Virus record (IMG/VR): IMGVR_UViG_3300025133_000034
DNA length: 64,000 nucleotides
Strand: one strand, 5' to 3'
From: an uncultured virus (IMG/VR IMGVR_UViG_3300025133_000034)
Lineage: Duplodnaviria; Heunggongvirae; Uroviricota; Caudoviricetes
Shown: positions 11,525 through 59,579 of the stretch, piece after piece
Layout: the number at the start of each line of letters is the position of its first letter
Numbering within the stretch: the stretch's first letter is position 1
Notes under the pieces: model-generated
Seen by the model: only the letters and a program-made list of their open reading frames with translations
Told to the model about the DNA's origin: nothing
The model's database searches: none
Position numbers and translations under genes: made by a program

Positions 11525-12721
11525 CTATATATCTAGCTTGAGTTTAAATGTATAGCCTCTTTCTTCTAATTTTCTTACTGGGTTGGCGAGGCCCGCGATG
11601 GCAATTAAATTCCTATCCTTGTCATATATGCCGATCTTTGAAATATAGGTCACAGGCTGGAAGCTGGCACTATAGTTTTTATAGCTACTAGAAACAATAT
11701 TTTTAATTTTTACCTGAGTATCTTGGTGATAATATACAGAACTAGAAATAGAATTCTTAACGCTAAAACTTCTTGTTAAGAACGTCGGATTATTAGAAAA
11801 ATTATTTTGTCCTTCCTTAGCATGTGCAAACATTGTAACGGTGTTAATATAGTCTAAACCATTAAATTCTAAATTAAAGCTTGAACCAGAAAGTCCCTGA
11901 GCTGACCCGGTTGCACCAAAATAATGCCAAGAAGGGTTGGTGAGGCTGGGAAGGTTCGGCGGCTCTCCTGTCATAGGATCATGATAGTCTGTACTTGAAG
12001 ATAGGGCCGCACTGGCTGTTAATATAATAAAGCCCTCATTATATAATACCACCCCAACAACACTACCTGTAGTAGAACCGGAAGTCTGGTAAAGGTTGCC
12101 GTTGCGATTGGTATCAGATGCCTCTGCCAACAATGATCCCGTAAGATAATATTTTAATTTTACACTACCCTTCTTTATGCTTGAACCATAGAAAATAGAC
12201 GGAATACTAATAATATTTAATTTTTGTAAGCTTTTATCTCCTAAGGAAGAAGAGTAGGCATAATGAGGGCTTAACACTGTGTGATAATCTAAAGTGGATT
12301 TTAAAGCATACACAACTCTTTTCTTTGCGTCAGTAAGAGAGGTACCATATCTATCGATAGATATTCCTGCTAGAAGTGGATAGGATCCTGTTATAGACTC
12401 ACCATAAACAAAATCATTATTAAATGAATCTGTGCTTACAGTCTTAAAGCTCGAAAAAGATCCATTTTTAGTAATGAAAGGATATATCATCTGTGGATCA
12501 GTACTTGAAGACACCAAATTACGATTGGTACTTAGTTCATATAAATTAATCTTTCCATTAGGTGTATGAAAATTTTGTGCATTCTGGTTCTCTTCATTAT
12601 AATAAATTGAACTAGAATAAATTAAAAAACTAACTTTTGGATAGGTCTTAATCCTGTTATGAAATATATCAGATTTTTCAAACTTATGAAAAGTTCCATA
12701 CTGTGGGGTGTGTGACGACAT
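11525..12721 (-). CDS. Virion structural protein (baseplate/tail-collar-like), Ser-rich
   Basis: The C-terminal YISKIGIYDKDRNLIAIAGLANPVRK...FKLKLDI is paralogous to the neighbouring gene; lies in the structural module. Confidence 0.7.
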   Translation of the reverse strand: MSSHTPQYGTFHKFEKSDIFHNRIKTYPKVSFLIYSSSIYYNEENQNAQNFHTPNGKINLYELSTNRNLVSSSTDPQMIYPFITKNGSFSSFKTVSTDSFNNDFVYGESITGSYPLLAGISIDRYGTSLTDAKKRVVYALKSTLDYHTVLSPHYAYSSSLGDKSLQKLNIISIPSIFYGSSIKKGSVKLKYYLTGSLLAEASDTNRNGNLYQTSGSTTGSVVGVVLYNEGFIILTASAALSSSTDYHDPMTGEPPNLPSLTNPSWHYFGATGSAQGLSGSSFNLEFNGLDYINTVTMFAHAKEGQNNFSNNPTFLTRSFSVKNSISSSVYYHQDTQVKIKNIVSSSYKNYSASFQPVTYISKIGIYDKDRNLIAIAGLANPVRKLEERGYTFKLKLDI

Positions 12722-12733
12722 CTCTTGCCCCCC

Positions 12734-13822
12734 TTAGTAATCGAGCCTAACCCTCAAAGTTAATTCAGTATTCGGATCTTTTCGAATCGGTTCTGACAAT
12801 TTAGCTACAGCTAGAAGCTCGTTGTCTGGCGAGTAGAGCCCAACAGAGGTAATATAGCTCACCGGTAAATCGCTTACATTATTTTTAACAACAATCTTGC
12901 TACCAGAAATATATGTCGGGTTGGCGCTGTAATTGTACTCATTATGATTGACGCGACAGAAATATATTGCAGAATTTAGTTCTATTGTGTTATTAAAATC
13001 TATATCATTGACCATGTGCCTAAAGCCATTAGCTAGTTTATCTATAGTAGAAGATGTTTGAGCGTGATTAATTCCGGTATTGGCGCCGCCATAGCCGCCA
13101 ATGGCGGTCTCATCTCCGGGCGCGCCGAATTCCTCTAGGAATAATGAGGAGGTTAAAGCAACTATCCCAGCTTGATAAAAAACCAAACCCTTACATGCTG
13201 TGCTTGTCGCTGACGAAGTTGTATCTGCGGAGGAAGTATAAATCAACCCATAATCACCTGCAGGACATGTACGATACTCCGTTGCAGAACCATAATCTCC
13301 TAGTGTTATGAGTCCAGTTCTAGCGGTACCGTTTCCTTCTACGGTGCCAGAAGTATATAATTTAAGTCTATAAGAACCTTTTTTGATTTCATCTTTAACC
13401 AACAAACGAGAATTGTTAATAAAGAAGCAATGATTCATAATCTGGCCTGCGCCGTCGATGGTACCGTCAGATTCAAATTTTCGAATAGTGCCGCTGACAT
13501 TGTATCCCAGCAAAACTTGAGCCATTTGATTATAGATATTTAATTTTTTTGCATTCTGTGTGTTTGCAGAAGAGCTTGCATTTGAACTGCATCCATAAGA
13601 TACATCAAAAATATGATTCGCTGAAGAGCTTAAATACGGATAATCGTAAACAGATTGATACATCCCATGAGAGAAGGTCTTAATATTTAATTCGGTACCG
13701 CCGGCACCGCCGGCTTGATAAGTTCCGGAGCTTATAGTACCAGTAATAGGGATCGCTTCGTGAAGAAGAGTTCTTGTAGTTACTGTATCATCTCCCAACA
13801 ATGGTTTAAAAGTTTTAGCCAT
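12734..13822 (-). CDS. Virion structural protein (baseplate/tail-collar-like)
   Basis: C-terminal YNYSANPTY...YITSVGLYSPDNELLAVAKLSEPIRKD...LRVRLDY. Confidence 0.7.
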   Translation of the reverse strand: MAKTFKPLLGDDTVTTRTLLHEAIPITGTISSGTYQAGGAGGTELNIKTFSHGMYQSVYDYPYLSSSANHIFDVSYGCSSNASSSANTQNAKKLNIYNQMAQVLLGYNVSGTIRKFESDGTIDGAGQIMNHCFFINNSRLLVKDEIKKGSYRLKLYTSGTVEGNGTARTGLITLGDYGSATEYRTCPAGDYGLIYTSSADTTSSATSTACKGLVFYQAGIVALTSSLFLEEFGAPGDETAIGGYGGANTGINHAQTSSTIDKLANGFRHMVNDIDFNNTIELNSAIYFCRVNHNEYNYSANPTYISGSKIVVKNNVSDLPVSYITSVGLYSPDNELLAVAKLSEPIRKDPNTELTLRVRLDY

Positions 13823-13833
13823 AATTTTCTATC

Positions 13834-15039
13834 CTATTGAATTTTTATAAAGCGCACTGGAATATCGATTCTGGCGCCGGTATTTGCTCCGATAACACGC
13901 ACAGCTGTATCTAACCAGTATGTTGTTTTACCATTGACGGCTGCGTCTGTTCCAGCGTCTGAATCGCCGTCGCCATTTTGTAATCCAGTTATTGTGCTAT
14001 CTATACCTACGCCGATGGCCTCTGAGAATCCAAGCTGTTCGAACAAATACGTTGAACTTTGTAATTCTGCGGAAGCCTGGATTCTAAAGTGCAGAGTGCT
14101 ACCTCTGGGGCCTTGATGCGTCTGAACCCTGTGCGCGGTGTAGGCGTCCGCGGACGACCTGGTCTCAAGGTAGGGCTCTTTGCCAGGATATGGGTTTACA
14201 AACTTATTATCAGTCAAATAGTAGGTTGCAATATTATCATCGTCAATAAAATTGACTGGAGCTATGTCCGCATTCTTGGTGGCTTTAACTCTTCCAAGTC
14301 TATAATCCATCTCAACAATGTACGCAGTTTCCAATAAATCTGAGTCCATACCTATTTGTGGGCTTATCTGGACTGTATTCAAACCCTGATCCACACGAAT
14401 CATAGTTGTGGCGTCAACTTTATAGCCGGGATCGCTGTCAGAGGGGGCATACCCCATCAAGACTCCATCAATTTCCGAGGACGGATCGAGCGCGAAGCCC
14501 GCGCCTGTGTCGCCCGCTTCGCGGGACCACGTCAGCGCGTAATGAGTGTCTGCGTCAACTGCAACATAAAAACCTTCGAAGGAAGGCGAATTATCTAGCT
14601 TGGGATTACCGGTGCCGGTCGTGCTTTGGCCTGTGTACCCGGGTTGACCGGTAGTGGTGTTGGTCCACATTTTGCCCATGCGCCTGAAAAATTTTGAAGA
14701 AGCCTTCTGGGCGCCGCCAGTGGCGTTTGCATGTACTTGATTTAGTCTTAAAGTCGGCATGTATAGCACATTAGTCCTATTCATTGTCATCAACTTTGAT
14801 TTAATTTGGCCTGAGTTATTAGTAAACGCCTCTAATATCGGCGTTTGCAATATCTCTAGATCGTAGTATGCACTACCGCTAGCATGATTTTTGTTATACA
14901 AACCATAATTTATTTCATCGTCGCCTAACGCAAACTTTGCGATCTTAAAACTACCATCGCCCTGAGCTAATCTTAAGCGACCAGTGTCTGTTAGTACAGC
15001 GTCAAGAATAATATCTCCTGAATTATCCAAAAAAGCCAT
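13834..15039 (-). CDS. Virion structural protein with a tail-collar/fibre-attachment-like N-terminus
   Basis: DAVLTDTGRLRLAQGDGSFKIAKFALGDDEINY; AAGGAG RBS and the ACTATTTA motif upstream. Confidence 0.7.
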   Translation of the reverse strand: MAFLDNSGDIILDAVLTDTGRLRLAQGDGSFKIAKFALGDDEINYGLYNKNHASGSAYYDLEILQTPILEAFTNNSGQIKSKLMTMNRTNVLYMPTLRLNQVHANATGGAQKASSKFFRRMGKMWTNTTTGQPGYTGQSTTGTGNPKLDNSPSFEGFYVAVDADTHYALTWSREAGDTGAGFALDPSSEIDGVLMGYAPSDSDPGYKVDATTMIRVDQGLNTVQISPQIGMDSDLLETAYIVEMDYRLGRVKATKNADIAPVNFIDDDNIATYYLTDNKFVNPYPGKEPYLETRSSADAYTAHRVQTHQGPRGSTLHFRIQASAELQSSTYLFEQLGFSEAIGVGIDSTITGLQNGDGDSDAGTDAAVNGKTTYWLDTAVRVIGANTGARIDIPVRFIKIQ

Positions 15040-15061
15040 TTGTTATACTCCTTTTCTCTAT

Positions 15062-15069
15062 TAAATAGT
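15062..15069 (-). promoter_or_regulatory. Candidate late promoter ACTATTTA with an A-rich upstream tract
   Basis: In the largest intergenic gap, about 23 nt upstream of the ATG at 15039. Confidence 0.55.
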
Positions 15070-15122
15070 TATGAATGTTTTTATTTTCTTGTTTTGTTTT
15101 TTAAACAAGCTTGTTGTTATCA

Positions 15123-22102: not shown

Positions 22103-23097
22103 TAACAAATTTCTCCTGGATCACTATCGATACCATTTTCGTATATATTAAATACTTTTCTCTTCTGTTTATTGAGAAGATCTTGACAGAATTGTGTTCT
22201 TGGATCTGCAAAGGCACCTAGAGTGTCATCAACCGGGTCTAACTTACACAACAATTCATCGTCGATTTCATCGTCAATTTTTATATCAAAATAATATTCA
22301 GATTGTGTTATGTCTTCTTCTGGGTCGACTTCATCTATAAAATCCATTTCTTTTTCTGGATCATGCCGCACAGAAAAGGCTAGAGGCCTTAAAGTTTCAA
22401 TAGTCTTGTCGCCTTGTATTTCTTCTTCTATTTCATACAGTTCTACATCATAATTTTTTTTCTGAGAAAGACCATTAATCTCGCCTATTTTCATTAAAAC
22501 GAACATATCCTCCTCTGTTGATGTAATAGCTATATCAGACAGCACTGGGCCGCCTTCGAACTCATCCTCCATGGAGGTGTCATCACTGATGTCTTCAAAA
22601 TTAATGTATTTAACCTCTGTATGGCTATCCAGCTGGGGTATGAAAACATTGTTGGTACCACCTGTTTTGTCGACTAAAGTCTGGTAATCAGTGGCTCCCG
22701 ACAGGTACCCATTTAAAAAATGCACAGACCAAGATGGAGCGTATTCTGCATTTGCATCGGAGACTCCAAGTGGTTGTATCAGGGTATAATTTTTTTCTGC
22801 CGTTTTTTGAAAAGAAGTCGGTGGCGTGCCTTCTAATAAAATCTTTGCATAACTATTGCCAAATTCTTTCTCCAAAGGAGAAAAGCTTATTTGTGGTTTA
22901 CAAGTTTGTGTAGTTTTGATTCTCGGCTCGGCGTCGTTTTGTTCTTCAGGAAGACCGGTCGTGCTAGAATTATATACTATATTATCATCAAAAAATGAAT
23001 AATATACAGGTTTGAACCCCCCCTTAGATAATAAGTGGCGTCCAAATTGAGTAATTTTAAGATCTATCACTTCCTCTTTCTTGTTAAAAAATTCCAT
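22102..23097 (-). CDS. Structural protein whose N-terminus is paralogous to 13834-15039
   Basis: IDLKITQFGRHLLSKGGFKPVYYSFFDDNIVY aligns with LDAVLTDTGRLRLAQGDGSFKIAKFALGDDEINY. Confidence 0.65.
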   Translation of the reverse strand: MEFFNKKEEVIDLKITQFGRHLLSKGGFKPVYYSFFDDNIVYNSSTTGLPEEQNDAEPRIKTTQTCKPQISFSPLEKEFGNSYAKILLEGTPPTSFQKTAEKNYTLIQPLGVSDANAEYAPSWSVHFLNGYLSGATDYQTLVDKTGGTNNVFIPQLDSHTEVKYINFEDISDDTSMEDEFEGGPVLSDIAITSTEEDMFVLMKIGEINGLSQKKNYDVELYEIEEEIQGDKTIETLRPLAFSVRHDPEKEMDFIDEVDPEEDITQSEYYFDIKIDDEIDDELLCKLDPVDDTLGAFADPRTQFCQDLLNKQKRKVFNIYENGIDSDPGEIC

Positions 23098-26000
23098 TAT
23101 TTTGTCACCCCAATTTCTATATCAATCTTGGCCGTTTCTATCAACGAAAAGTAGTCATAAGGCCAGTTGGCGCCGTACACTTCTTTAACTTTTATATTTT
23201 CTAATAAGCTGCCTCCCTGAAAAACAAGCCATGGATTGGGCCCAGTGTTGATATACTGGCTGTTCAAGACTGTGTGAATTTGTTTGGAACGGTATTCTTT
23301 AAAATCTTTGTTGCCGCGCTGCTTAACTTTAAAAACCATAAAGCGAAGATTTTCATAAAACCCTTTTGCTCCTTCTTCTTTCAACCAGGTTGGTATTATA
23401 CTTGATTGTTCATCACAATATTTTATAAATAAATCATTTTCAAGTGGGTTTCCACCATGCATTAAGGGGGGTGTCAAAAAGTTCTCTAGGCCCCTGTCGA
23501 CGAGGTAATCGTTATCAAACCCACCGAGCGCGTCCATATCGAGGCCATCCGAGTTGCCGGGGAGGGGGTGTCCGCTTTCCTCGAAGGCCTTCATCGCCGC
23601 AGACAGCTCGTCGGCGTCTCCGGAGTACGTTTTCACCATATGTTCGAGGACGTGGAGACCCGTCAGCTGGAGCTGGGCTCTATTTGTTCTATGATTTTTT
23701 GCCATAAATGGTACCCAAGAAGGCAGGCGATGGGCTCCAGCACCGGGCATCGGCTTCGGGAAGACTGCGGTTCGACGGGTCGGGAAGACAGGCAGCTGCT
23801 CATCGGCCCTAGAAGCAAAACGAGCAGCTTTCGGCATTATACCTTGATACATATCAACTAAATCCTGTTTATCGAATGTGTGCTTAAAAGGCATTATTAC
23901 CATTTGAAACGGCTTCACTGTCCTATTGTGCACAAAATCAAACTCTGGAGGAAGCTGAAACCCTAAGTTATGGCTATAAGACAGATTAGCACTTCCTTCT
24001 GGATGAGGGGTTAAATCTCCTACAATCTGCTTTATCATGTTACCAACATCAGTACCTAAGGCCGTATTTAAGTTGGCTTCAAAATTTTGTGAATTAGGTG
24101 CTCCATCTATATCATAACTCATCTTTGAGGCCTTCGGCAGGTGCGCAGGCCCGTGGGTGTCCCCCCTCTTGTAAGCGGGAATGTATTTTTTTGTCAACAA
24201 TAAACTTAGCATTTGATTAAAGAGATCGTCTTGCACTGGCAAAAAATGTTTACCCGGTATTATTTCACGGGTACAGTATAATTGTTTTTGGCCGTACGCG
24301 GTTTCTTCAGAGAATTTTTGTTCAAAAGTGGCCTTGTTGCCGTCGTCGAGGTCGAGTTCCACAGTGACAGTGTGGCCATTAAGAACCTGTATCTTGTTAT
24401 GAGGATTAAATACTATTGGCTCCTCTAAGTAAGGAATTATAACAATGGCTTCATGAACGTCCTTCTGCGAAGCTATTTGCCCTAACTTATATTCAGCTTT
24501 TCTAAATTCTAGGACATCACATAGAGACCCCGTTAGATGACCAGTGTCGGTTGCACTTGAAGTTGGGCTTCCCATTGTGTAGAACCCTTCGGTGTCGACA
24601 CCTATCTCGTCAACAAACGTGGCGGACGGCTCATTCTCTTCTTCACTACCAAGATATATATCTTTCACGGTCAGATAAAGGCCTTTTGTTATCTTTCCGC
24701 GGGCAGCATTATCGTTGAAGCCTAATTTATCATATATACTATTCATTGCAGCCATATCATAGGGGTCTGTGCCATATCCTCCCCAGAGGCCGCGGCCAGT
24801 AGTATAATCATGATATCTATTACTAACTAATTTATTAGAGTAAGCCGGCATGTCATAGGCGTCGTTGTGAGCGTTCTTGCTGGCAAACTCTGTTACCGCA
24901 GACCATGAAGCGGAGAAGTCTAATATTGGACATGTCCACCATGGAGCAACAAAAGAAGTGTAGCCCATGGTGTCTCCGGTCTCGATCTTGTATATGGGTA
25001 TAGCCTTTGAAAATTCTAAACTGGCATCTACTTTCATCCTGGAACCGGCTCCTCGTGATACAGATGATGTGCCCGGGAGTGATAAGCATAGTCCGTCGAG
25101 ATCGCCATGGGCGTTGCCGGTTATATAACTCTCATAATAAAAAGTGTTTTCCTTTCCTAAAGAAGAGAACCATACATCTTGATATTGGTCTGTAGTGTTA
25201 GCTGGTTCATATTTTAATATTTTGCTACTTGGACCGTAGAAATATGGTGGTGTGTATGCTTGATAAGCGGGGTCCTGCAAATTATAGTAAAAATACATTT
25301 CGTAATCATTTTGAGCTAATGTAACTTCATTGAAAAACAGCTGTTGATTAGCCTTGGAAAATGACGTGCCGGCCAAGGGTGTCTCGCGCGCGGTCGCGTT
25401 GTTGGCTGCCACAACTTCTATCGGAGGACCATATATATATCCTCTCATTGTGGATCCGTAAGCGCCAAGTCCGACATTCGTTGACGCGGTACCGGCGAGT
25501 CCGGCGCGGCGTGGGCCTTCACATATTATTTGATGATTCCCCATCTTTAAACCAATTTCCATAAAATATTTTTTATTTTCATCTAGAGTGGGTATCACAT
25601 CAGTAATCGGCGCGGCTCTGTTAGGAGTAATAACTTGAAATTTTATACCTGCCGGCATGTTCATATCCACGGACTTCTCGGCGTCAGCTAAAAAGAAGTC
25701 CATCATCTCAGCTAGAAAGTTATTCATTGAGGAATTATAAATTAAAACTTTTGCGTTGTTCTCATAATGCGGCTGATTGAACCCGGCCTTGCCTAGTGTT
25801 TTAAAGATGGCGCCGGCATTGTCTGCGATCGCACCTGTGCCGGCATGGAGAGCATTGTTTAAACCACCTTCATGCCATGATCGTCCTTCAGCTGTTCTAC
25901 GATCTAGGTCCACAAAATCAGAAGGTAGAAACAGGTTCCTATCTGCCAAGAGATTCATTTTGCCATCTAACAAACCGTATAAAGCTGCAAAGGGCAAACG

Positions 26001-29000
26001 ATGTGAGGGGGCGTTTGCTAAGATTGATGGATAACATCTAGAGCTTCCCATCATGTACGCACCACCATAATTAAAAGTAGAAGAAACAGCAGACGTCACG
26101 TTGTCTCCACTATAGAAGTCCGTAGGCATATAATAAACTGGCACATTTTGTTTGTTTATAATCCCAACGTCCTGCGCGTACATTGGCCAATCAACAGCAA
26201 TGCCGGACTTGATAGAATTATATAATAGGCCCGGGCCAAAGAGGGGTTCTAGAAAAGTCTGCTTTATCATCGCCGCTTGTGTTCTTTGGTTTGGAACTCC
26301 GTAGCACGAGCCGCTTTGATAGCTGACTGCTAATGATGGATTATGATCATGAGACCGCGGTGGACTACCTTGAAGAATTCGGCGGCCCGGGCCGGAGTCA
26401 TGTAAGAAAGCTTCTGCAAATTGCGCCGCTAATTGTACTGTTCTAGTAACAGGGTAAAATCCATCTCTAATGCGCATTTTTTTGATGGTGTTGGCCCTAA
26501 ACGTAATCTTAGATGGGATAGTATTCTTACCATTTTTAAATCCCTCACCATTGTCAAAGCTCATCAGATTGGAAAAAGCTTTAAGAGTGTCTGTTTCTCC
26601 GAATAAAGATGCAAATTTAGCTGCTTGTCGATCTCGGGCCCAGTGGTTTGTAGAAGAAGCGCCGTACTTCCCATAACTTCCAGTTTCTGTAACATCGAAC
26701 AATGAAGAAGAGCCTTCGGGGTCAGATACATCTTTATATTTTAACAACTCGCTGGGTGTTGAAACTATCTTGTTTGTCCCGTTCTTATATTCGACATTGG
26801 TGCCGCCTAATTGATTTAAGCCCGAGGCCGGCAGATCTCCAGCCCACGCTTCTTCGCCGGCGGTGACTTGGTACACTTGAAGGGGGTGTTGGTTGCCGGC
26901 AAGGTTTTCCTGCATCCAAGCCGCCAGCTCGGGATTGTACGTCGCAGTGAAGTAATCGCTATCTCTTATGCTTATGACGTTTCTTAAACTAGAAAGAGTG
27001 CCGGTTCGTGACCCGTCATTGAGAAATTCTCTAGCGTTGGCGTCCTCTGCAGCAGCTGCCGTATAAGTTCTCTCAGCGCCGTCTGTGGCTCTAAGTGTTA
27101 TCGTTTGTCCATTAATCAGATTATTAAGATTAGTTATATGTATCCTGTACCTTCCTGGCTTGTCTGCAACAATTGCTGCGTTTTTTACATAATCATTTTG
27201 TGCACTAGACGTAACAACGGCGCCGTGGATCTCTAAAAAGTCAAACTTATGAGAACTATAATTCAAAGGGTTCTGGTCGGTGTCATCAGCTAAGGTTGGT
27301 AAAAAAAGCTTCACTTGATTGTCTGTAAACACAACTTGCTTATAGTTTTGCACTTCAAAAAGTCCGATATCTCGTCGCATTTGACTCATAATCCTAGGTG
27401 CTTCACCAGATGAAGTAAAGTACTCTTCTAGGTGATCCGACGCGTTATATTCAGGTATGATCGTGTAATCTCTACCAAGATGTTTGAGTTCGTTACCAAT
27501 AAATGCATTATAAGAATTATGATATGGATCAACTCCTCGTATTTTGTCTGTAGCATAAAATGGCGAGTTATATGGAAAAGTATGTCGCAAATATTGTGGT
27601 GAAGCTTTGCCCATACCGTAACCATCTAGGTTCGTCTCCGCGCTGCCTGTTCTATAAAAGAACAAAGTTGGTTTTGTGCTATAAACTAGTTCACCGGCTG
27701 AGCCAGTGTTAAGATTGTATATACTCGAAGTAATAACTGTGGGCTTCTTGGTTGCCGCGTTATCTTCGCCCAACTCACTAACATAAGAGCCGGTTTTACT
27801 AAAATAAGGATAGCCGGCGCGATGAGGAGTAAGCCCTATATGGGTGCCGCGGCCGCCAATGCTAGATGTTAGATAAACTGGCCTCTCATATATATCCTGG
27901 CGTGGGTCTAGTGGCCACATACTCAAGGCGCTTAATTCATATGGCTGATATGATTCTAATTGAATAAAAGCACCGTATGGCTGTATACCGGGGATTTCTC
28001 CCAAGTCTACTTCTGAACCCGTCATAACGTTGTGTTGACTTGCAACAACACCGTTCATCGAAAAAGTAACACGGTTATTCCAGGGGGTGTCACCGACCAG
28101 CGTGTCAAAAAGCTGCCTAGAGCCCGTGTTCATTAAAGCAGCTGCTGAGGCGGTCCAATAACTAGACACAGAAGATGTAAGCACTGTAGTGTTTGTATCA
28201 GCGTTCTTATATCTAGTATCTTCTGGTTCAGATCCATAAAACGGTACCGTATCGTTAATAAAAAGAGAATTTTTTGCAGCGCCGTCGGTGCGCATCCTAG
28301 TTATCCCATTAGACACGGCGGATGCAGCGCCGCCGCCCTGTTGGTCCCTCCAAAAACTTATTCTTTTTCCAGGCTTTTTATCATACATTTTTGAGCCGGA
28401 TGGGATTAGGTCGGAGGACATATTTGCCATAGAAGAAGCTTCTTCGTAATTGTCTCTTTTTAATTTATAGGGCCTATATGCATTAATACTTCTAGGATAT
28501 AGTCTTTCTGAATATACAAAGGCAGAGGCGAGCTTACCTGTGGCATCCTTAAAAAATAAATATTGCTCATGTTTTAATTTTCTCTGAGGCACGTCACCCG
28601 GTTTTGAGCCTGTAAGTGGGTCTCCAGAAGATATTCTTAGCGTTGCATTCATTTCAGGATTAGAAAAAAATGACACTTCATTAACCAGAGACTGACGTAC
28701 GACCATCGAGGTACCCACCATATAAGTAAGGGGCTTGTATTTGGTTACCAACACTGGCTCATAAAATTGTTTTAAATTAATATTGCTATTATATAATCTA
28801 TTTAAGTGTTCAGAAGAATCAGGGTTCTCGACGACATAATTAGCTCCAATCCACCTACTTACTGGTATTGCAAACTTATCCGGACCATATAAACTTTCTA
28901 TTTTTTGTGATGCCTCGGCTGAGTGAAGTTCCCTTGTTACTTCTTCATACCTCTGTGTAGTACTGGCATTAGCTAATGTATTAGGTATTGGATTATTAAT

Positions 29001-29411
29001 ATCAATTGAAATTAGATTATTTCTTTTATAATATCTAGCTAGAGGATGTTGGCCTCCTCTCCAGTGTTTCCACATAGGGTGCCCATACGGACCATTGCGA
29101 TGCAGAAGAAGGGCGTTTAATATTCCCGCATCGCCTGGTTGGTCACTTGTGTTAGCAACTACATGAGTAATAAGACCGCCTTTATAATTAAAATCTGTTG
29201 TGGAATTCCATATTTGATTTTCATACCCTAGAGTATTTTCGCTAGAAGACAGTGGTTCGTTTATATTTGTATTTAAACCAACAAAATCATCTGGTATAAA
29301 ATCGTAGTTGGCGCCCTGACCCTGGGTGATGCCGCGGCGGCGCCCGGAGCCGACTTTGTAACTACCCAGATTGCTAGCACTTATAAAATTTAATGATCCG
29401 CTTATTGCCAT
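23097..29411 (-). CDS. Very large putative virion (baseplate/tail) protein, 2104 aa
   Basis: Long ORF with a GAGG RBS and many S/T-G/A/S-S motifs; no catalytic motif recognised. Confidence 0.7.
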   Translation of the reverse strand: MAISGSLNFISASNLGSYKVGSGRRRGITQGQGANYDFIPDDFVGLNTNINEPLSSSENTLGYENQIWNSTTDFNYKGGLITHVVANTSDQPGDAGILNALLLHRNGPYGHPMWKHWRGGQHPLARYYKRNNLISIDINNPIPNTLANASTTQRYEEVTRELHSAEASQKIESLYGPDKFAIPVSRWIGANYVVENPDSSEHLNRLYNSNINLKQFYEPVLVTKYKPLTYMVGTSMVVRQSLVNEVSFFSNPEMNATLRISSGDPLTGSKPGDVPQRKLKHEQYLFFKDATGKLASAFVYSERLYPRSINAYRPYKLKRDNYEEASSMANMSSDLIPSGSKMYDKKPGKRISFWRDQQGGGAASAVSNGITRMRTDGAAKNSLFINDTVPFYGSEPEDTRYKNADTNTTVLTSSVSSYWTASAAALMNTGSRQLFDTLVGDTPWNNRVTFSMNGVVASQHNVMTGSEVDLGEIPGIQPYGAFIQLESYQPYELSALSMWPLDPRQDIYERPVYLTSSIGGRGTHIGLTPHRAGYPYFSKTGSYVSELGEDNAATKKPTVITSSIYNLNTGSAGELVYSTKPTLFFYRTGSAETNLDGYGMGKASPQYLRHTFPYNSPFYATDKIRGVDPYHNSYNAFIGNELKHLGRDYTIIPEYNASDHLEEYFTSSGEAPRIMSQMRRDIGLFEVQNYKQVVFTDNQVKLFLPTLADDTDQNPLNYSSHKFDFLEIHGAVVTSSAQNDYVKNAAIVADKPGRYRIHITNLNNLINGQTITLRATDGAERTYTAAAAEDANAREFLNDGSRTGTLSSLRNVISIRDSDYFTATYNPELAAWMQENLAGNQHPLQVYQVTAGEEAWAGDLPASGLNQLGGTNVEYKNGTNKIVSTPSELLKYKDVSDPEGSSSLFDVTETGSYGKYGASSTNHWARDRQAAKFASLFGETDTLKAFSNLMSFDNGEGFKNGKNTIPSKITFRANTIKKMRIRDGFYPVTRTVQLAAQFAEAFLHDSGPGRRILQGSPPRSHDHNPSLAVSYQSGSCYGVPNQRTQAAMIKQTFLEPLFGPGLLYNSIKSGIAVDWPMYAQDVGIINKQNVPVYYMPTDFYSGDNVTSAVSSTFNYGGAYMMGSSRCYPSILANAPSHRLPFAALYGLLDGKMNLLADRNLFLPSDFVDLDRRTAEGRSWHEGGLNNALHAGTGAIADNAGAIFKTLGKAGFNQPHYENNAKVLIYNSSMNNFLAEMMDFFLADAEKSVDMNMPAGIKFQVITPNRAAPITDVIPTLDENKKYFMEIGLKMGNHQIICEGPRRAGLAGTASTNVGLGAYGSTMRGYIYGPPIEVVAANNATARETPLAGTSFSKANQQLFFNEVTLAQNDYEMYFYYNLQDPAYQAYTPPYFYGPSSKILKYEPANTTDQYQDVWFSSLGKENTFYYESYITGNAHGDLDGLCLSLPGTSSVSRGAGSRMKVDASLEFSKAIPIYKIETGDTMGYTSFVAPWWTCPILDFSASWSAVTEFASKNAHNDAYDMPAYSNKLVSNRYHDYTTGRGLWGGYGTDPYDMAAMNSIYDKLGFNDNAARGKITKGLYLTVKDIYLGSEEENEPSATFVDEIGVDTEGFYTMGSPTSSATDTGHLTGSLCDVLEFRKAEYKLGQIASQKDVHEAIVIIPYLEEPIVFNPHNKIQVLNGHTVTVELDLDDGNKATFEQKFSEETAYGQKQLYCTREIIPGKHFLPVQDDLFNQMLSLLLTKKYIPAYKRGDTHGPAHLPKASKMSYDIDGAPNSQNFEANLNTALGTDVGNMIKQIVGDLTPHPEGSANLSYSHNLGFQLPPEFDFVHNRTVKPFQMVIMPFKHTFDKQDLVDMYQGIMPKAARFASRADEQLPVFPTRRTAVFPKPMPGAGAHRLPSWVPFMAKNHRTNRAQLQLTGLHVLEHMVKTYSGDADELSAAMKAFEESGHPLPGNSDGLDMDALGGFDNDYLVDRGLENFLTPPLMHGGNPLENDLFIKYCDEQSSIIPTWLKEEGAKGFYENLRFMVFKVKQRGNKDFKEYRSKQIHTVLNSQYINTGPNPWLVFQGGSLLENIKVKEVYGANWPYDYFSLIETAKIDIEIGVTK

Positions 29412-29448: not shown

Positions 29449-32400
29449 CTAAATTAATGATCCTGTTATCCATCTATATTGCTTGTCTGTTCTTGGAATC
29501 ATATGAGAAACAAAGCCGTTATCATAGTACGATGCTGTAACGGCTGTCATAGAAGCGATATCCACATCTGAATCAGTAAGTTCTAATCTTTCAATATTAT
29601 TTCTATGAATTTTATGCTTTGATGCATCGCCAGACAGGGTATAGTCTGCAGCTTGAATAGTTCCTATAACTTCTGATCCATATACTCTAGCTGTTGTTGC
29701 GTCGTGCGTACTAACACCAAATTTACCGCAATGAGCTTGTAGCTGTGTATTATATACTTGTCGCATTGACATGTTTCTGAATGTCATTGCATTATACGCA
29801 GAATATGTTTCATGCGCGGGGTCCAAGAATCCACGAGATACAGTTTCATAACCGCCATGGGAAGTGAATCTAGACATTATTCTCGATCTATTTTTAACAG
29901 TTCCTGAAATATATGATCGATTTGGGAGGGTATAGTCAACATATGTGCCAGAAATAAACGACGTTGAACGGACAGTTCCAGGTGTTTGTTTTAGCAGGTC
30001 TTCTATCTTCGCGATAACCACTCTTTCTGATGATGTTACAGCAATTTGACTGGTATTCTTAACAAAAAATGGATCATTAGACTCTGGACTGATGGTATTA
30101 ACATATTCGTACCTATTAAGGAAATTTCCTGCTACTGTAGAGGTATTTGAAGCGTTTCCTGTCATGTGAATATTACGAATATTTACGGGACGCTTTGCGT
30201 ATTCTTGACGAGTGTGTATTGCGCTTGGTCTGTGGTGATTGTCATGAGTTGGACTAAATAATTTAAAGGAATCCTGTTTTGTTCCTGATCCCTTGTACAT
30301 AATAACATTATCAATCGCAATGTCGCCTTGTTGTGTGATGCCGGCAGTATAGAAAAATCTTATATAAAATCTTTTTCCAAGCCAATTGGCTAGCCCATTG
30401 CCATAAGTCGTGCTGGCTATATAGGCCCCCGAAAAAGTGTCAGAGCCGTTGGTGTGTTGCTGCCCAGAAAGAACAGTACTTTGGCCGCCGGAGGTGGACG
30501 CGTTCCAGTCAACCAACAGGTCCTCCACGCCTCTAGAAAAGTTTTTGTATCTACAGGCTTGTACTTTTAAACTCCCTATATGAAGTCCATACATTAAATA
30601 ACTGAAGGAAAGGGTCACGTTAGAGCCTGAATCAACTTCAGTTAAATCTATTAATGGAGTTACTATTCCGAATGTCTGTCCCACTTTAGAAGGCAATACC
30701 TCACAATACATGTATTTGCCAGAATTAGGGCCTGTACCTGCTGTAGCGGTCTGGCCACTTAGGAACGACCACTCATTATCTGCATTGACGCCATTTCTCC
30801 AATATTCATGCGGGCTTGGTTCTGTTTTTTTATCATCAAGAAGTCCGGTTGCGCTGGTGGGAGGCGCAGAGGTTCCCCAGGAGCCCATTGGGAGGTTTAG
30901 TACTTTGGTGTCTGTAGAAGGAGATGTTGTTGCCCGCCCAAAACCCTCATATAATATATATTCTATCGACCCTAAATTCAAAAACTCTTGTAAATGCCAG
31001 CCTTCTGGTCTCGTTAACGGGACATCAGGCCCCTCATTGAGGTCTATGTGTCTATGTTGCATCCCCCCAACGTACTTTTCAGCAAACGGCCCTTGCATTG
31101 GTATTTCTGCATCGAATCCATACTTGTCATCATGCATGTTGGTGAAATCAATTTTAAATTGATCAGCATATAAGCCTTGATAACCAGTATCAATTGAAGA
31201 AGAATATATACCAAATGGTAATAACAAATCTGCCTTCCCATCTGTTGAAAGCTGATCATTGATACCAGTCGCTGACCCATCAGAAGATGTAATTTGGTGG
31301 GCCGGCATGGTCAGGACTGTCATTTTAACGCGCTTCTTATTTGTTTCATCAGGAACAAACTTGTCATCACAGTCTTTCTTGGCTAATTCGTTGTCCATGT
31401 CTATAAAAATAAAGTCATCGTCACTGGCCCATTTCGTTACATTTTTATAAAAATCATGTTTTTGTTTGCGATGAGGATTAGACCCTCCTTTTAGTTTGAG
31501 AGTACGATTGGTTTCTAAGTCTATTACTCTCCTCAGGCTTCTGTTGGGGTAGTAGCTTTCTTGATATGCAGTACCATTGTCCATTAGTTTTGCGGTAGCA
31601 CCAGAAATTTCTGTAACTATGGTCTTCAAAATAACTGATTTATTTGAGTCAATATTTGTATCGCCAGAAGTCAGAACGTCGTCGCGGTCGGCTCTTTCTT
31701 TCCACCATAAACAATTCGTATTCTGATTGGTGTTTTGATCTGCACCTACTGGCGCATGGCCAACACGCCAATTATATTTCAGCTCTTCAATAGCGTGCAT
31801 AGTGCCAACAGGTTCTGGAATGTTAACTTCCATTGTAGGAAACTTATTCCAATATTTATTTCTTTCCAAAATATGACTTTCGACCATATTTCTTAATAAT
31901 TCTACTGTATTAGAAGAAACAGGTATAAGCTGTCCTATCATGATTGTTATTGCATCATCAATCCACTTAAAATATTCAATGAATTTTTCTAAATCAGGCT
32001 CATTTTCAACTCTTTCAAAGAATAATTCCCTAAGCTTCTCCATTCTTTTATAGTGAGGCCTATATCTGTTTAAGGGCTCACCGACCATGTTGTTGAAGTT
32101 CACAACAGTAGCAAAAAATCTTAACATTTCCTCAGACATAATCTGATACATACTTTTTTCTACTGACAATAAATGCTGTACATATGTTGTATCTCTGGTA
32201 AAGACAAGATCATCCTGCTTATTGAGGATTTTTACCATATCATCGCTGTTAGCGACTTCCGGAAGCTTTTGCTTGGCTGTCTGCACATATTCTACGTCAA
32301 CAGCCTGGTCTCTATAGCCAGAGGCAGAAACGAAATCATATCCTGTAGCAGGATAATTACGCTTACTTATGTTACTGAACCATCCATATCTCTCATTAGC

Positions 32401-35283
32401 AACGTCTGTTGCCGAGCCGGATGTATAATCCGGTATCATAAATTGTCCACTAGCATCTGAGCCAGTTACATTGTCCAGGCCCCAATGAAAGAGCAATGTA
32501 TCAATTTGTGGTATAAATTTATCAAATAATTGCTTATTACTAACAGTCAAATTAGAAGATTTATATGGATTCAAAACTCCGTAACTATTAGCATTTTTAG
32601 CATGAGCGCGGATGGTCTCGTTATCTAAATAATCGTACCACATTCTAGTGGAAGAGACTTTTACATCAGAATATGCTATAGTGCTGCCGGTAAAATTATT
32701 TCTGGCTGCACCCATAAACACTCTTTTATTTTTAGTAAAATATTTAGATGCATCGGTCAAACTCATGGTACCAGATATAGTAAATTCATTTTGTAAAATA
32801 TTAGAAACGTAATTAACACCATAAAACTCATAAGTATATGCCGAACCAGAACTTAGAAGGCTGCCACTAATTAAGTTTGCCAAGGGGGATTTTGTAGGCC
32901 GGAGCCTAAATGCTAAATTCCACTTTTCGTTGTCGTATACTCTATTATACGTGTCAGTAGAAAAGGCATCTGATATAATATTGCTTGACCCCGAAGTAAT
33001 TATACCAAATTTAACACTTCTTTTATCATTATCAGGTCTGGTGGCGACAATATTAAAATTAATTTTATCATCCGGATCACAAGTTAAATCCGTATTAGAT
33101 GCTACTACAGCATGCAGACCGATTATAGAAGAAGTTGAATAAGGTAAAATATTAAAATGTTTATCGCCTAGTTCCTTTTTTGGAAAAATAACTTCTGTTT
33201 CTAGCGTTAAAGAAGACCCAGACATAGAAGCAGATGGGATCCCAGGCACATAAGATATAGAATTTGAATCTGCAGATGCGGTCTGAAAGGCAGTTGCAGT
33301 AAAAGAGTTTGCATAACCGCCATTTGCGCCATATCTTGTCTCTGAATCATCAAAGTCTAAATATTTTTTACGTACAGCTATGTTGGTATGATTATTTTTA
33401 AATTCATATGTGTCGTCGTTGGTATAAATATTTAATTTAATTAATTCTTCATCTACACCAAAACATCTCAAAAAATTACGTAATGACTTGAAAGTCCCTT
33501 TGGATTTTTGTATATAAGATAAATTATTGTATATGTTATGATATATTATGTTTTTTACTTCATATAATTTTCTTTCAAACAGCTGTTTCTCATCCCTCTC
33601 AAGATATTTAGCTAGAGCAGAAGCATGGGCAAAAAGCTCCGGAGGGTCAAACCCCCTAGTGGTGAGAAGTCTTTCTGCAAATGGTAATGTTTTTTCATAT
33701 TTTTTGTCTTCTGGGTAATTTATATCTTTTAAACGAGGCAATTCTTGTATTTGCAGATATAAATCGTCAAAATAGCTAGCAATTATTTGAGTCAAGTATT
33801 TTAACTCATTAGATTCTTTTTCATCTTCTTCCATAATCCACCCTGGCAAAGAGCGGTATAATGAAACTGAATTTTCATGATCGTGGAAAGAGCCACTTAG
33901 TTTTTTACTAGTATATAAAGAAGAGACTTCAGGATGAGAGGAATAAATAATTGGATCTTTAAATTCTTTTGTTGCAGCTTGCGATATAACAATAGCGGAC
34001 CCGGTGTTTCGTGATTCTGAAGAATTATAATTTACAAAAGTTCCGTTAGATATCCTACCAGAATAATCTAATATTGTGGCATCAGTCGTAGAGTTTCCAG
34101 TTATGCCCTCATTAAATTTATAGTAGACACCAAGGTCAACAAAGTTTGATACATCATCATATTTTACATTATCAGTATTTGTACCTCCGCCTATTTGATC
34201 TCGCCAGTATCTGCCTATCTGTTGACCGTCTCTTTCTGTTTTCCAATATCTGAATTCATCGAAAGAGGCAGAAACAATATTACCCCAACCTAAATCACCA
34301 TATTGAGCGCTACCACGTTCGTCAGGTTGGCAAAGAGCACCAAGAGCTGCTATCATTGTTCCACCAATAGCATTGATTGTTTCATTATCTTCTTTTGTTG
34401 ATTTGTGTACACCATCGACATATAGATTGGATACTGTACTAGTTCCTTGTGTTTTGGCTGTAAAGGCGTAATGGTGCCAGGTGCTATCAGCTATAAGTGT
34501 TGCAGATCCAACATTGTGTGTAAAAAGTAACTGAGTTGAGCCGGAAAGAATTTCAAAATCGACGTTTTGAGGATTGCTGCTTCCTCTGGACGATATTCTT
34601 AATTGCTGGCCATATGCTTCTCCAGTCGAGCCAGACTTTGCTAAGTGAAAAAAGTTTTCTGTTTTGGTTGTGTCTGTTGATGCCCAGCCGTCTTTTTTCA
34701 TCCAAAATTCTATAGTGACACCCTTGTCTAGATCAAGCTCTAAATTGTTTGTTCTTTGGCTACCTGTGTGATATATATTAGCTTTTGATATACCACTTTT
34801 TGATGGGCCGGCAGAAAAATCACTCTTGTAGTCACCGCCTGGATCCGCGTGAGGGCCACCTTTTATAAAAATATATTGCGGGGCGCTACTGCTATAAATA
34901 TTAAGTTCTTGTGTGCTAGTATATGTGTTGGAGCCACTATTAAAAGTTACAAATCCGTTAGTTCTTGGATATTCGTTTTCAAATATGAAAAGGTCTAAAT
35001 AGGTACTTTCATTTTCCCATTCAATTTTCTCTGCTTGCGAGCCATCATAAGGATATGTTTGATAAATACGTTTAATCGCAGTATCATAGTATTCTTCAGC
35101 TAAACCGAAGCGGGCAAAATTAGAAGCGGTGCCTAAATCTATATCAGGTACAAATCGATCGCGTTTATTCGAATAAGAATCAATATATCTAAATGATTCT
35201 ACCTCTTCTCTAAGAGTATCCCGTGTATGATTCTTTAGAAGCTTCGTAGAATAACCTTTGTTAAACAGATCTTTAATACCCAT
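29449..35283 (-). CDS. Baseplate wedge (gp7/P2 gpI-like) protein with LamG-like lectin domains and a MAM-like domain, 1944 aa
   Basis: LamG motifs VTIEFWMK, DSTWHHYAFT, LYVDG and FDEFRYW. Wedge motif KSKGTFKSLRNFLRCFG. MAM-like motifs GTGP..GKYMYCE, TPLIDL, LSFSYLMYGLHIGSLKV and GDIAIDNV. Confidence 0.7.
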   Translation of the reverse strand: MGIKDLFNKGYSTKLLKNHTRDTLREEVESFRYIDSYSNKRDRFVPDIDLGTASNFARFGLAEEYYDTAIKRIYQTYPYDGSQAEKIEWENESTYLDLFIFENEYPRTNGFVTFNSGSNTYTSTQELNIYSSSAPQYIFIKGGPHADPGGDYKSDFSAGPSKSGISKANIYHTGSQRTNNLELDLDKGVTIEFWMKKDGWASTDTTKTENFFHLAKSGSTGEAYGQQLRISSRGSSNPQNVDFEILSGSTQLLFTHNVGSATLIADSTWHHYAFTAKTQGTSTVSNLYVDGVHKSTKEDNETINAIGGTMIAALGALCQPDERGSAQYGDLGWGNIVSASFDEFRYWKTERDGQQIGRYWRDQIGGGTNTDNVKYDDVSNFVDLGVYYKFNEGITGNSTTDATILDYSGRISNGTFVNYNSSESRNTGSAIVISQAATKEFKDPIIYSSHPEVSSLYTSKKLSGSFHDHENSVSLYRSLPGWIMEEDEKESNELKYLTQIIASYFDDLYLQIQELPRLKDINYPEDKKYEKTLPFAERLLTTRGFDPPELFAHASALAKYLERDEKQLFERKLYEVKNIIYHNIYNNLSYIQKSKGTFKSLRNFLRCFGVDEELIKLNIYTNDDTYEFKNNHTNIAVRKKYLDFDDSETRYGANGGYANSFTATAFQTASADSNSISYVPGIPSASMSGSSLTLETEVIFPKKELGDKHFNILPYSTSSIIGLHAVVASNTDLTCDPDDKINFNIVATRPDNDKRSVKFGIITSGSSNIISDAFSTDTYNRVYDNEKWNLAFRLRPTKSPLANLISGSLLSSGSAYTYEFYGVNYVSNILQNEFTISGTMSLTDASKYFTKNKRVFMGAARNNFTGSTIAYSDVKVSSTRMWYDYLDNETIRAHAKNANSYGVLNPYKSSNLTVSNKQLFDKFIPQIDTLLFHWGLDNVTGSDASGQFMIPDYTSGSATDVANERYGWFSNISKRNYPATGYDFVSASGYRDQAVDVEYVQTAKQKLPEVANSDDMVKILNKQDDLVFTRDTTYVQHLLSVEKSMYQIMSEEMLRFFATVVNFNNMVGEPLNRYRPHYKRMEKLRELFFERVENEPDLEKFIEYFKWIDDAITIMIGQLIPVSSNTVELLRNMVESHILERNKYWNKFPTMEVNIPEPVGTMHAIEELKYNWRVGHAPVGADQNTNQNTNCLWWKERADRDDVLTSGDTNIDSNKSVILKTIVTEISGATAKLMDNGTAYQESYYPNRSLRRVIDLETNRTLKLKGGSNPHRKQKHDFYKNVTKWASDDDFIFIDMDNELAKKDCDDKFVPDETNKKRVKMTVLTMPAHQITSSDGSATGINDQLSTDGKADLLLPFGIYSSSIDTGYQGLYADQFKIDFTNMHDDKYGFDAEIPMQGPFAEKYVGGMQHRHIDLNEGPDVPLTRPEGWHLQEFLNLGSIEYILYEGFGRATTSPSTDTKVLNLPMGSWGTSAPPTSATGLLDDKKTEPSPHEYWRNGVNADNEWSFLSGQTATAGTGPNSGKYMYCEVLPSKVGQTFGIVTPLIDLTEVDSGSNVTLSFSYLMYGLHIGSLKVQACRYKNFSRGVEDLLVDWNASTSGGQSTVLSGQQHTNGSDTFSGAYIASTTYGNGLANWLGKRFYIRFFYTAGITQQGDIAIDNVIMYKGSGTKQDSFKLFSPTHDNHHRPSAIHTRQEYAKRPVNIRNIHMTGNASNTSTVAGNFLNRYEYVNTISPESNDPFFVKNTSQIAVTSSERVVIAKIEDLLKQTPGTVRSTSFISGTYVDYTLPNRSYISGTVKNRSRIMSRFTSHGGYETVSRGFLDPAHETYSAYNAMTFRNMSMRQVYNTQLQAHCGKFGVSTHDATTARVYGSEVIGTIQAADYTLSGDASKHKIHRNNIERLELTDSDVDIASMTAVTASYYDNGFVSHMIPRTDKQYRWITGSLI

Positions 35284-35304
35284 AAAAAATTCCCAACTAT
35301 ATTA

Positions 35305-36852
35305 TTAATTATTCTCGACTCTAAATTTATACACCTTCTTGGACTCCCTCCAATCATCTGAAGTATGAAAAGCAAACTTAATGCCGTACATGTAGCCAGG
35401 TTCTAGCAAAGACATATCTAAGTCGAAATAACTACCAGATACATCATACGAAAGGAATGTATGGTAGTCTGAGCTTCCTGTAGAATTCTGTATAACAGTT
35501 CTTTCATCTACCATGCGCAGGACCTCGAACGAAGCGCTAGGAATAATAACTCCTTGTAATTCAGAATTAGCAACATTATATATTGTTGGGCTAGTATTAC
35601 GCTCTCTTATAAAGACCCTGAACCGCGGGTTTTCATCTTTAGTATATGCCGATTTTAAATTTGTTATTTTTGTTTCGTATTGGGGCGCCGAATTCCAGCC
35701 CGGAGATGTTAAAGATACTGGAGAAATCGAACCAGTAAAGTATTCATTGCCGATGCTTCCAGACCATACATCATATATTGTCTTTAAACTAGTTGATCCC
35801 GTAAAAGCAAAAGAAGCAGAATATATTCCAGTTGAAACATATCCGCCGGTCACGGTGAGATCACCATTGGCTGGTACACCTCCGCCGGCACTTAAAGCCA
35901 GTTTAGAGCCAGAAGGGGCGGTATTGTTGGCAGAGCCAGAATATATGCTCAAAAAAAGCTGGCCAGTGCCAACATCTGGTATGTTTCTTAACTGTCCTCT
36001 TACATAATTGTAAAGATAAACTGTATTTAAATTATCCTGCGCAGGCGCCAAAGAGCTGCTGTAATAAAAATTGCCTCTGTCGTCAGATTTTCTAGAATCC
36101 CAGCGCGCTTCAATCGCAGGCTTCTTGAAAAAATATTCACTTGACCTAGAGAAGAATCTTTTTGTATATGTGCTCTTTCTTGCACCATCTGTGTTTTGTG
36201 GTACGCCTGATTCAGCTGTTGCAACATATGCTTCGAAACTTGAAGTTAAATGTATGCCAAATCCATAATTTTCTTGTGTCGACGCGATCCATTCTTCAAC
36301 AGCAGATGTTACGTCAACAAGAAGATCTTCGTGCCCCTCATTAAAAGTAAAAGTATAATTAGGCATTGTCTCGTCGGCCACGTAAGACGAAGAGTGATAT
36401 ACACCGCCTTGGGCGCCCCAGCTAGCAACAGGATTTGAGTTTCTGTTAACCCAATTAGAGCCCTCAATATTATCCTTTGTCTTATCAGTATAGCTCTCCA
36501 TATCTAAACCATGGCCTTCTTGCCACGATTGAGACACAGCTAACACATTTACAGTAAAATTCTTAGGAAGCTGTTCTGAATGTCTAGCATTAAACATTCT
36601 TAAATAAAAGCTTACACTACCTGATGCAGGAATGGTACCAGCGAGTCTGTCAGAAGATATAGTACTTATGGGAAATTGTACCAATATACGAGATGATTCC
36701 GCAGATGAGGTTGTCTGTTGCCCATAAATTGAAAACGTCTCAAGTATATCAGCGGCGCCCATATTTGAACCGGTGGCGCGGGTAGAGAGATCCACGCCAT
36801 AAGCATTTGTAATAGTATTGTCCTTATTAGCAATATATTTTTTTATACCCAT
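35305..36852 (-). CDS. Virion protein with a DNRLRE/CBM96-like domain and Ig-like C-terminal modules
   Basis: SRILVQF, VLAVSQSWQEG, VDVTSAVEEW, NYGFGI and FFSRSSE...PAIEARW match the DNRLRE pattern. Confidence 0.6.
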   Translation of the reverse strand: MGIKKYIANKDNTITNAYGVDLSTRATGSNMGAADILETFSIYGQQTTSSAESSRILVQFPISTISSDRLAGTIPASGSVSFYLRMFNARHSEQLPKNFTVNVLAVSQSWQEGHGLDMESYTDKTKDNIEGSNWVNRNSNPVASWGAQGGVYHSSSYVADETMPNYTFTFNEGHEDLLVDVTSAVEEWIASTQENYGFGIHLTSSFEAYVATAESGVPQNTDGARKSTYTKRFFSRSSEYFFKKPAIEARWDSRKSDDRGNFYYSSSLAPAQDNLNTVYLYNYVRGQLRNIPDVGTGQLFLSIYSGSANNTAPSGSKLALSAGGGVPANGDLTVTGGYVSTGIYSASFAFTGSTSLKTIYDVWSGSIGNEYFTGSISPVSLTSPGWNSAPQYETKITNLKSAYTKDENPRFRVFIRERNTSPTIYNVANSELQGVIIPSASFEVLRMVDERTVIQNSTGSSDYHTFLSYDVSGSYFDLDMSLLEPGYMYGIKFAFHTSDDWRESKKVYKFRVENN

Positions 36853-59574: not shown

Positions 59575-59579
59575 TTTTC

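Follow-up and report, generated by a model that had tools for sequence, protein, structure and literature searches.

A Ser/Thr-Gly-Ser motif in predicted tail proteins of a T4-like myophage group as a candidate O-glycosylation sequon

Why does a short tripeptide recur throughout some predicted tail proteins of a phage and show no excess in others encoded nearby? This question is raised by a 64,000-nucleotide stretch of an uncultured tailed virus, hereafter the window, which covers positions 62001-126000 of the 136.7-kb IMG/VR record IMGVR_UViG_3300025133_000034 (G000; 66% complete according to CheckV). A first-pass annotation had noticed the pattern [S/T]-[G/A/S]-S in several structural proteins of the window and had read it as an acceptor sequon for a phage-encoded virion glycosylation system. 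Our analysis suggests that Ser/Thr-Gly-Ser is likely an O-glycosylation sequon on predicted tail, baseplate and fibre proteins, and that it would be primed by a conserved pair of glycosyltransferases (GTs), GT417 and GT432, encoded beyond the window. The source phage is a T4-like myophage, in which a gp23 capsid, a gp20 portal, a T4-type terminase, a sheath, gp6/gp25 and a late sigma factor were all found. On sequence grounds, we assign it to the immuto/RM378-related group of T4-like myophages. Among 50,697 annotated phage records, the window gp6 matched only immuto (four records), Mel-JY01 and LR756508 at E ≤ 1e-10.

Expected motif counts were obtained from 500 composition-preserving shuffles of each protein. 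Five window proteins together contained 86 [S/T][G/A/S]S motifs, while about 22 were expected, which bears out the recurrence that had been noticed by eye. They are a 398-aa predicted baseplate/tail protein that is our candidate acceptor (11525-12721; 14 motifs vs 3.3, six of them [ST]GS), a 362-aa predicted baseplate/tail protein of the same family with homologues in immuto, Mel-JY01 and RM378 (12734-13822; 7 vs 2.0), and three predicted structural proteins of 2104 aa (23097-29411; 24 vs 5.7, with nine of its 11 [ST]GS in the first 910 aa), 1944 aa (29449-35283; 26 vs 7.0, with 15 [ST]GS) and 515 aa (35305-36852; 15 vs 4.1, with nine [ST]GS). The excess was significant in all five (p ≤ 0.002-0.004), and the motifs are dispersed and not tandem, as first described. 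These genes, like the wedge, late sigma and sugar genes of the window given below, lie on the minus strand. The 1944-aa protein has a weak MAM match and the 515-aa protein a weak DNRLRE/disaggregatase match. None of the five matched a Pfam or PHROG structural-protein family, and the profile of the 398-aa family matched no PDB sequence, so their status as virion parts is inferred from gene order, next to the baseplate genes. Relatives of the 398-aa protein are numerous, with at least 4550 at E ≤ 0.001 among 8000 candidates scored.

The excess is confined to certain proteins. The gp6-like baseplate wedge (36852-38648), which served as internal control and as the basis of the clade tree, contained no motif (1.3 expected), and the terminase contained none (0.7 expected) and Mre11-Rad50 one (1.0 expected), exactly as the first count had it. 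The gp25-like wedge protein (38652-39050) also has none. A 3297-aa protein, credited earlier with about six motifs, has seven vs 6.8 expected and so indeed shows no excess. Neither do the 401-, 1024-, 1295- and 331-aa genes within 11525-36852, with 1, 0, 2 and 0 motifs. Outside the window, two fibre-like genes were enriched (31 vs 9.4 and 18 vs 7.5) and the sheath, identified by family match, was mildly raised (10 vs 5.9).

Within the five proteins the excess was largest for [ST]GS (42 vs 7.0, or 6.0x), followed by [ST]SS (30 vs 9.7) and [ST]AS (14 vs 5.9). To guard against post-hoc choice of the motif, we ranked all 8000 tripeptides over the 119 open reading frames (ORFs) of the contig. SGS came first (70 vs 20.6) and TGS fourth (37 vs 16.7), and SAS, TAS and SSS were not enriched over these ORFs, although variants with a middle Ala or Ser were raised 2.4-3.1x inside the five proteins. 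The core motif is therefore [S/T]-G-S, narrower than the form originally proposed, and a middle Ala or Ser gives weaker variants. A hydrophobic or aromatic residue had been said to precede the motif; Val, Ile and Leu are indeed favoured there in the contig, but Tyr is not (0.7x across five genomes). Neither N-x-S/T (59 vs 61.3) nor D-(S/T)-(A/I/L/V/M/T), which we take to be the Bacteroidota glycosylation sequon (12 vs 18.3), was enriched in the acceptor candidates.

The preference acts on the protein. We rejected a DNA-level cause because the codons are diverse and the other frames flat: the 87 [ST]GS sites in eight motif-bearing genes fall in 68 distinct 9-mers and draw on both groups of Ser codons, and the remaining five reading frames gave 26 occurrences vs 20. 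Across six genomes that carry the GT pair (1037 ORFs, after exclusion of two from Mel-JY01 with collagen-like repeats), Ser (2.9x) and Thr (2.4x) were clearly raised before GS and Asp slightly (1.5x), and only Ser was raised after [ST]G (2.6x). In six genomes without the pair (1485 ORFs) [ST]GS was flat, at 254 vs 232. When only Ser/Thr/Gly-rich proteins were considered, the counts were 454 vs 128 in pair-positive and 223 vs 173 in pair-negative genomes; this composition-matched control and the shuffles rule out plain Ser/Thr/Gly composition as the cause.

We also asked how the two hydroxyl residues change along the family tree, using the query and the 107 representatives no longer than 460 aa; these 108 sequences formed 54 independent pairs on the tree. 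Ser/Thr at position i and Ser at i+2 changed in the same vs the opposite direction in a ratio of 276:144 (p = 1e-10), and the ratios at offsets 1, 3, 4 and 5 were 228:187, 173:169, 142:149 and 123:135. At the 14 motif sites concordant and discordant changes stood at 111:6, a figure that leans towards concordance because these sites were picked by frequency, and at the remaining sites at 165:138. This pattern indicates that both hydroxyl residues are needed and that they are gained and lost together. All 129 distinct orthologues from fetched loci carry at least three motifs and 126 of them reach at least twice the expected number, while the median observed/expected ratio was 4.1 in 150 distant representatives. 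Individual sites turn over while motif density is kept. The motif feature is real, clade-wide and under selection on the protein.

Which enzymes could act on such a site? A GT2 gene cut by the window end is followed, past that end, by three more GT genes and then by GT432 (432 aa; G000 129114-130412) and GT417 (417 aa; G000 130391-131644), 3-6 kb beyond the window end. Six Pfam GT matches, one of them weak (E 0.016), fall in G000 125737-131644, and PF00534 (Glycos_transf_1) is above cut-off in both members of the pair. The two Glu residues of the EX7E motif are invariant in GT417 (E285 and E293; 74 sequences). GT432 has the first Glu in every sequence; at the second position Glu is the majority residue, at less than 90%. 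By domain and EX7E motif, both proteins are classed as GT4 (GT-B fold) glycosyltransferases, and the best PDB match of both profiles was the chlorovirus GT B736L (E 1.2e-16 and 3.4e-6).

The two genes are conserved together. Around GT417 in 80 loci we found GT432 in 78, a 280-aa GT in 56 and other island genes in 5-35, counts that are lower bounds since 10-kb flanks miss the farthest island genes. GT417 was present in 26 of 50 mostly partial records. The GT432 profile matched 25 of 56 records, including 13 of 17 complete ones; most of these 13 had been selected via GT417, and the four that had been selected via the baseplate gene all carry both GTs. The four complete records without GT432 all belong to a jumbo sister clade and lack both genes. 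The gp6 flanks of this clade were mostly near expected motif counts, and in a search mostly of its members the GT417 profile matched one of 30 records. The pair is adjacent in the cultured phages immuto, Mel-JY01 and RM378. Mel-JY01 has its GT417 orthologue in two pieces, one ORF that matches the N-terminal half and an adjacent one that matches the C-terminal half (L015:8441-9932). Another gene kept beside the pair, in 69 of 80 loci, encodes a 225-aa HExxH-type metallopeptidase-like protein with weak ATLF/M90 Pfam matches below cut-off (L001:16716-17393; G000 132716-133393).

Motif density follows the pair across phages. Genome-wide, [ST]GS was raised 2.44-2.87x in the pair-bearing G000, G001, immuto, Mel-JY01, RM378 and G056. 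The ratios without the pair were 0.99 in G045, 0.96 in the partial G046, 1.33 in G053, 0.70 in T4, 1.16 in Samisti12, 1.23 in S-CBS4 and 1.32 in P-SSM2. Weak GT4 matches in Samisti12 and S-CBS4 scored 42 and 70 bits, vs at least 283 bits for true orthologues, and neither phage has a motif excess. G038 (motif 2.0x, no GT) was not counted as a counter-example because its contig ends at the start of the island, and we excluded G061 (36% complete, motif 2.07x, no GT seen) on the same grounds. Of 30 families common to at least four of six positive genomes, only GT417 and GT432 were present in all six and absent from G045 and G053; GT417 was found in six of six, and GT432 in five of six by BLAST and in RM378 by a hidden Markov model.

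Two genomes depart from simple clade membership. By gp6, G056 is nested in the motif-free sister clade, yet it bears both GTs, which group with those of immuto, and it has 206 [ST]GS vs 77.5 expected, with SGS ranking second. Gene absences in G056 are weak evidence because the genome is only 60% complete. Conversely, LR756508 groups with immuto by gp6 and has GT417 but no GT432. Its [ST]GS ratio is 1.37x, and none of its 630 ORFs is individually enriched. Because LR756508, with GT417 alone, has little motif, GT432 would be the better candidate for site recognition. Some predicted structural proteins in the jumbo sister clade contain mucin-like Pro/Thr repeats, with EPTTT in G045 (C1:302689-321624 and 1-648) and TPT as the top tripeptide in both G056 and G061; these Pro/Thr repeats are possibly acceptors of a different glycosylation system.

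The enzymes named in the first-pass annotation lie inside the window, at 55907-64000. As it had stated, two GTs and sugar genes border the late sigma factor (54397-55089, at the downstream edge of the sugar island) and the structural block, all of them on one strand. The island comprises a GDP-fucose-synthase-like nucleoside-diphosphate (NDP)-sugar epimerase/reductase (55907-56806), a 291-aa GT8/nucleotide-diphospho-sugar transferase-like protein (56806-57681; no Pfam match, named from the ESM Atlas only), a B12-binding radical SAM protein that is likely a methyltransferase (57721-59592), a predicted dideoxy-sugar pathway of a dTDP-glucose-4,6-dehydratase-like protein, RfbH (its match exceeding the NCBIfam cut-off) and a further epimerase (59580-62640), and a two-piece transketolase-like module, possibly for a branched sugar (62642-63761). 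The 3' end of a 223-aa GT2, recognized by Pfam, is cut by the window end (63737-64000). Together, RfbH, the two-piece transketolase and the B12 radical SAM protein (57721-63761) suggest a methylated, branched dideoxy sugar. Elsewhere in the window, a 1227-aa protein (50423-54106) with a weak Peptidase_M15_4 match near its C-terminus is possibly a tail-associated peptidoglycan hydrolase.

Could the GT8-like protein and the GT2, together with the rare-sugar pathway, read the motif directly, as first proposed? Their position on the same strand, adjoining the late sigma factor and structural block, would suit such a role. The complete relative G001, however, has no detectable homologue of either GT or of the transketolase pair, matches the remaining sugar genes only weakly or partially and has a different island, and still its tripeptides SGS and TGS rank first and second. 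P-SSM2 shares NDP-sugar genes but has no excess in its baseplate proteins. Because G001 keeps the same motif density without them, the in-window GTs are disfavoured as motif readers, and we consider it highly improbable that they fill this role. Gene comparison instead indicates that the in-window sugar genes form a swappable island that cannot explain the motif. Among the phages compared, the co-variation of motif density with GT clusters that had been anticipated is seen for the GT417/GT432 pair and not for the in-window island.

We next considered where the motifs sit. An AlphaFold2 model of the 398-aa protein was built from a 119-sequence alignment (predicted local distance difference test score, pLDDT, 65; predicted template modelling score, pTM, 0.55). 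No listed strand or helix contains the whole of any of its 14 motifs; three begin at a strand end, and two occupy hairpin turns of two residues. In this one medium-quality model, then, the motifs fall in turns and loops, as had been expected of surface sites, which fits exposed acceptor loops and equally a structural beta-turn. In six sheaths, motifs numbered 57 vs 21.4 in the N-terminal part and 1 vs 4.4 in the last 315 aa, which are presumably the inner domains of T4 gp18. Orthologues of the capsid, portal, terminase and gp6 showed no consistent motif excess.

Several observations weigh against a sequon read by the pair. G053, LR756508 and P-SSM2 are mildly raised (1.3-1.4x), and P-SSM2, without the pair, has a Gly-rich 597-aa protein with 15 [ST]GS vs 3.8. 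The contrast is mostly clade vs clade, with about two independent events (G056 and LR756508). In G056 most motifs belong to fibre-like genes for which the negative clade has no orthologue, so the pair could have arrived along with the motif-rich genes. Those genes that G056 inherited reach only about 1.8-1.9x, on small counts (17 vs 9.0, 15 vs 8.2 and 10 vs 5.5), and in its close relative G061 the excess is lower (8-12 vs 7-10). The model of the 398-aa protein is mediocre, with four of its 14 motifs in blocks of pLDDT <50, and the motif flanks are of beta type (V/I/F before, L/F/I after), as a structural hairpin motif would also give. One of the 150 distant homologues, P0266, has no motif at all. 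Encoded on a 2007-bp ENA contig, it is a full orthologue that shares 51% identity with the 398-aa protein, and it possibly represents a lineage that lost the system. As to the enzymes, the activity of B736L itself is given as uncharacterised in the available text of PMC9614988, and phage GTs also modify DNA or host surfaces according to excerpts of PMC12619734.

Many of these points would suit the main rival, a clade-specific structural preference for a hydroxyl-capped beta-hairpin or an ST-type turn in tail proteins rich in beta structure; the GT pair would then be a core gene inherited alongside, acting on DNA, a lipid or the host surface. Such a preference would account for motifs at strand ends with beta-type flanks, and a hydrogen bond between side chains could underlie the joint change at i and i+2. 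It would also sit well with an SGS-rich protein in the pair-negative P-SSM2, with the small number of phylogenetic contrasts and with a possible transfer of the motif-rich genes of G056 alongside the GTs. We nonetheless find it unlikely. Homologues place DGK, NGN or GPT in the same turns, so the fold does not need the motif, and Asn/Asp-Gly-Ser, [ND]GS, stays at its expected number in the five proteins (5 vs 5.0). Only in pair-positive genomes, moreover, does the motif recur in unrelated proteins (sheath, baseplate and fibres); P-SSM2 and the sister clade have large baseplate proteins rich in Ser, Thr and Gly that show no excess (7 vs 8.5 in the 5195-aa protein of P-SSM2). Modification of the motif by a host enzyme, or by a non-sugar group such as phosphate or methyl, seems less probable again. 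Two hydroxyls in a loop would suit any Ser/Thr modification, and host-dependent methylation of a phage tail protein is reported in the accessible part of PMC13445384. The motif is, however, common to phages of unrelated recorded hosts (Flavobacterium, Microcystis and Rhodothermus), neither N-x-S/T nor the Bacteroidota sequon is raised, and only two GT families track the motif in the family profile.

To our knowledge, virion glycosylation in tailed phages has been shown only for a few mycobacteriophages. Excerpts of the literature describe it for Che8, Corndog and Myrna (Freeman et al. 2023), with glycans at the C-termini of capsid and tail-tube subunits (PMC12619734, PMC12363180). Like these phages, the source phage is a tailed phage encoding its own GTs, with which it would modify proteins of its virion. 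Unlike in those accounts, the capsid shows no motif excess, and the candidate sites, dozens in number, are internal and dispersed over proteins predicted to form the baseplate, sheath and fibres of a myophage. Chloroviruses, as presented in the available text of PMC9614988, glycosylate their capsid autonomously with soluble virus GTs and atypical sequons (NY-2A B736L and PBCV-1 A546L), the glycans being N-linked (NTxT) on the major capsid protein. Soluble virus-encoded GTs and an atypical sequon would be shared with our proposed system, and the similarity to B736L is remote.

The arrangement of a conserved pair beside a variable island finds its working model in GtfA/GtfB, which excerpts of PMC6973325 describe as a conserved adjacent pair that primes Ser/Thr of serine-rich repeat proteins in the cytoplasm, after which variable GTs extend the glycan. 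The acceptors proposed here differ in being dispersed tripeptides in folded domains and not long serine-rich repeats, and GT432 mostly retains its EX7E motif, unlike GtfB, described in the same excerpts as a chaperone. DUF1975 was absent from the Pfam matches of the GT region, no GtfA/GtfB was among the PDB matches of the GT profiles, the SdgA model scored 22.9 bits vs a cut-off of 800, and no SecA2/SecY2 was among the annotated island genes. The BAHT heptosyltransferases TibC/Aah, as far as the available text of PMC4358343 describes them, act in the cytoplasm and O-glycosylate a beta-rich protein at many serines located in strand-loop-strand sites, and multi-site serine glycosylation in strand-turn-strand sites of beta-rich proteins is likewise what we propose. 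The BAHT model TIGR04414 matched nothing in G000 (66% complete) or in 11 complete close relatives, and two of 21 records overall. BAHT was ruled out as the motif enzyme, as it is present in Mel-JY01 and in the motif-poor G053 and does not track the motif. By these profile comparisons, the GT pair belongs to neither the GtfA/GtfB nor the BAHT family.

In Mel-JY01 (PP395634.1; L027:4747-8430), a 1227-aa ORF combines a GT4-like N-domain with an Aah/TibC heptosyltransferase at the C-terminus (317 bits vs the NCBIfam cut-off of 200) and sits between genes with collagen-like Ser-Gly-Thr-Ser-Gly repeats, which points to a BAHT-type protein O-glycosyltransferase in a cultured phage. A stand-alone BAHT homologue (185 bits, below cut-off) is found in G053 (C1:270139-271197), a 362-kb jumbo phage without the GT pair.

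The sequon proposed at the outset gains indirect support from the need for both hydroxyls, the location in turns and loops, the avoidance of the inner sheath and the co-occurrence with a GT pair, and it is the best-supported reading, with the core narrowed to [S/T]-G-S and other enzymes as its likely readers. Late in infection, the soluble GT4-like pair would place the initial sugar, or more than one, on Ser/Thr of a strand-turn-strand site. The swappable island (GT8-like, GT2, RfbH, transketolase and radical SAM proteins) would then supply rare, strain-variable outer sugars, and the outcome would be a variable glycan coat on outward-facing parts of the tail and not on the capsid. More tentatively, a very large clade of aquatic myophages, which extends over thousands of sequence clusters and three cultured members, may run its own sequon-directed O-glycosylation, in which a horizontally mobile GT4 pair primes SGS/TGS in hairpin turns at dozens of outer-tail sites and a swappable island builds serotype-like outer glycans.

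Immuto, Mel-JY01 and RM378 are distant relatives of the source phage (GT identity 21-35%) with the same adjacent GT pair and [ST]GS excess. In the open-access literature searched, which takes in no supplements and only a minority of subscription journals, we found no virion glycan data for these three, and neither a phage O-glycosylation sequon nor any mention of SGS/TGS in proteins of phages. Our reading names both enzyme and substrate, and it is directly testable because these three cultured phages carry the pair and the motif. If correct, it would describe a virus-encoded O-glycosylation sequon, and the two genes would make a compact, portable means of directing glycosylation to defined sites in the bacterial cytoplasm. 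It would also account for why abundant uncultured phages keep a GT pair while swapping large export-less sugar islands, and it predicts that their tails bear a variable sugar coat, which might influence host binding, grazing and stability.

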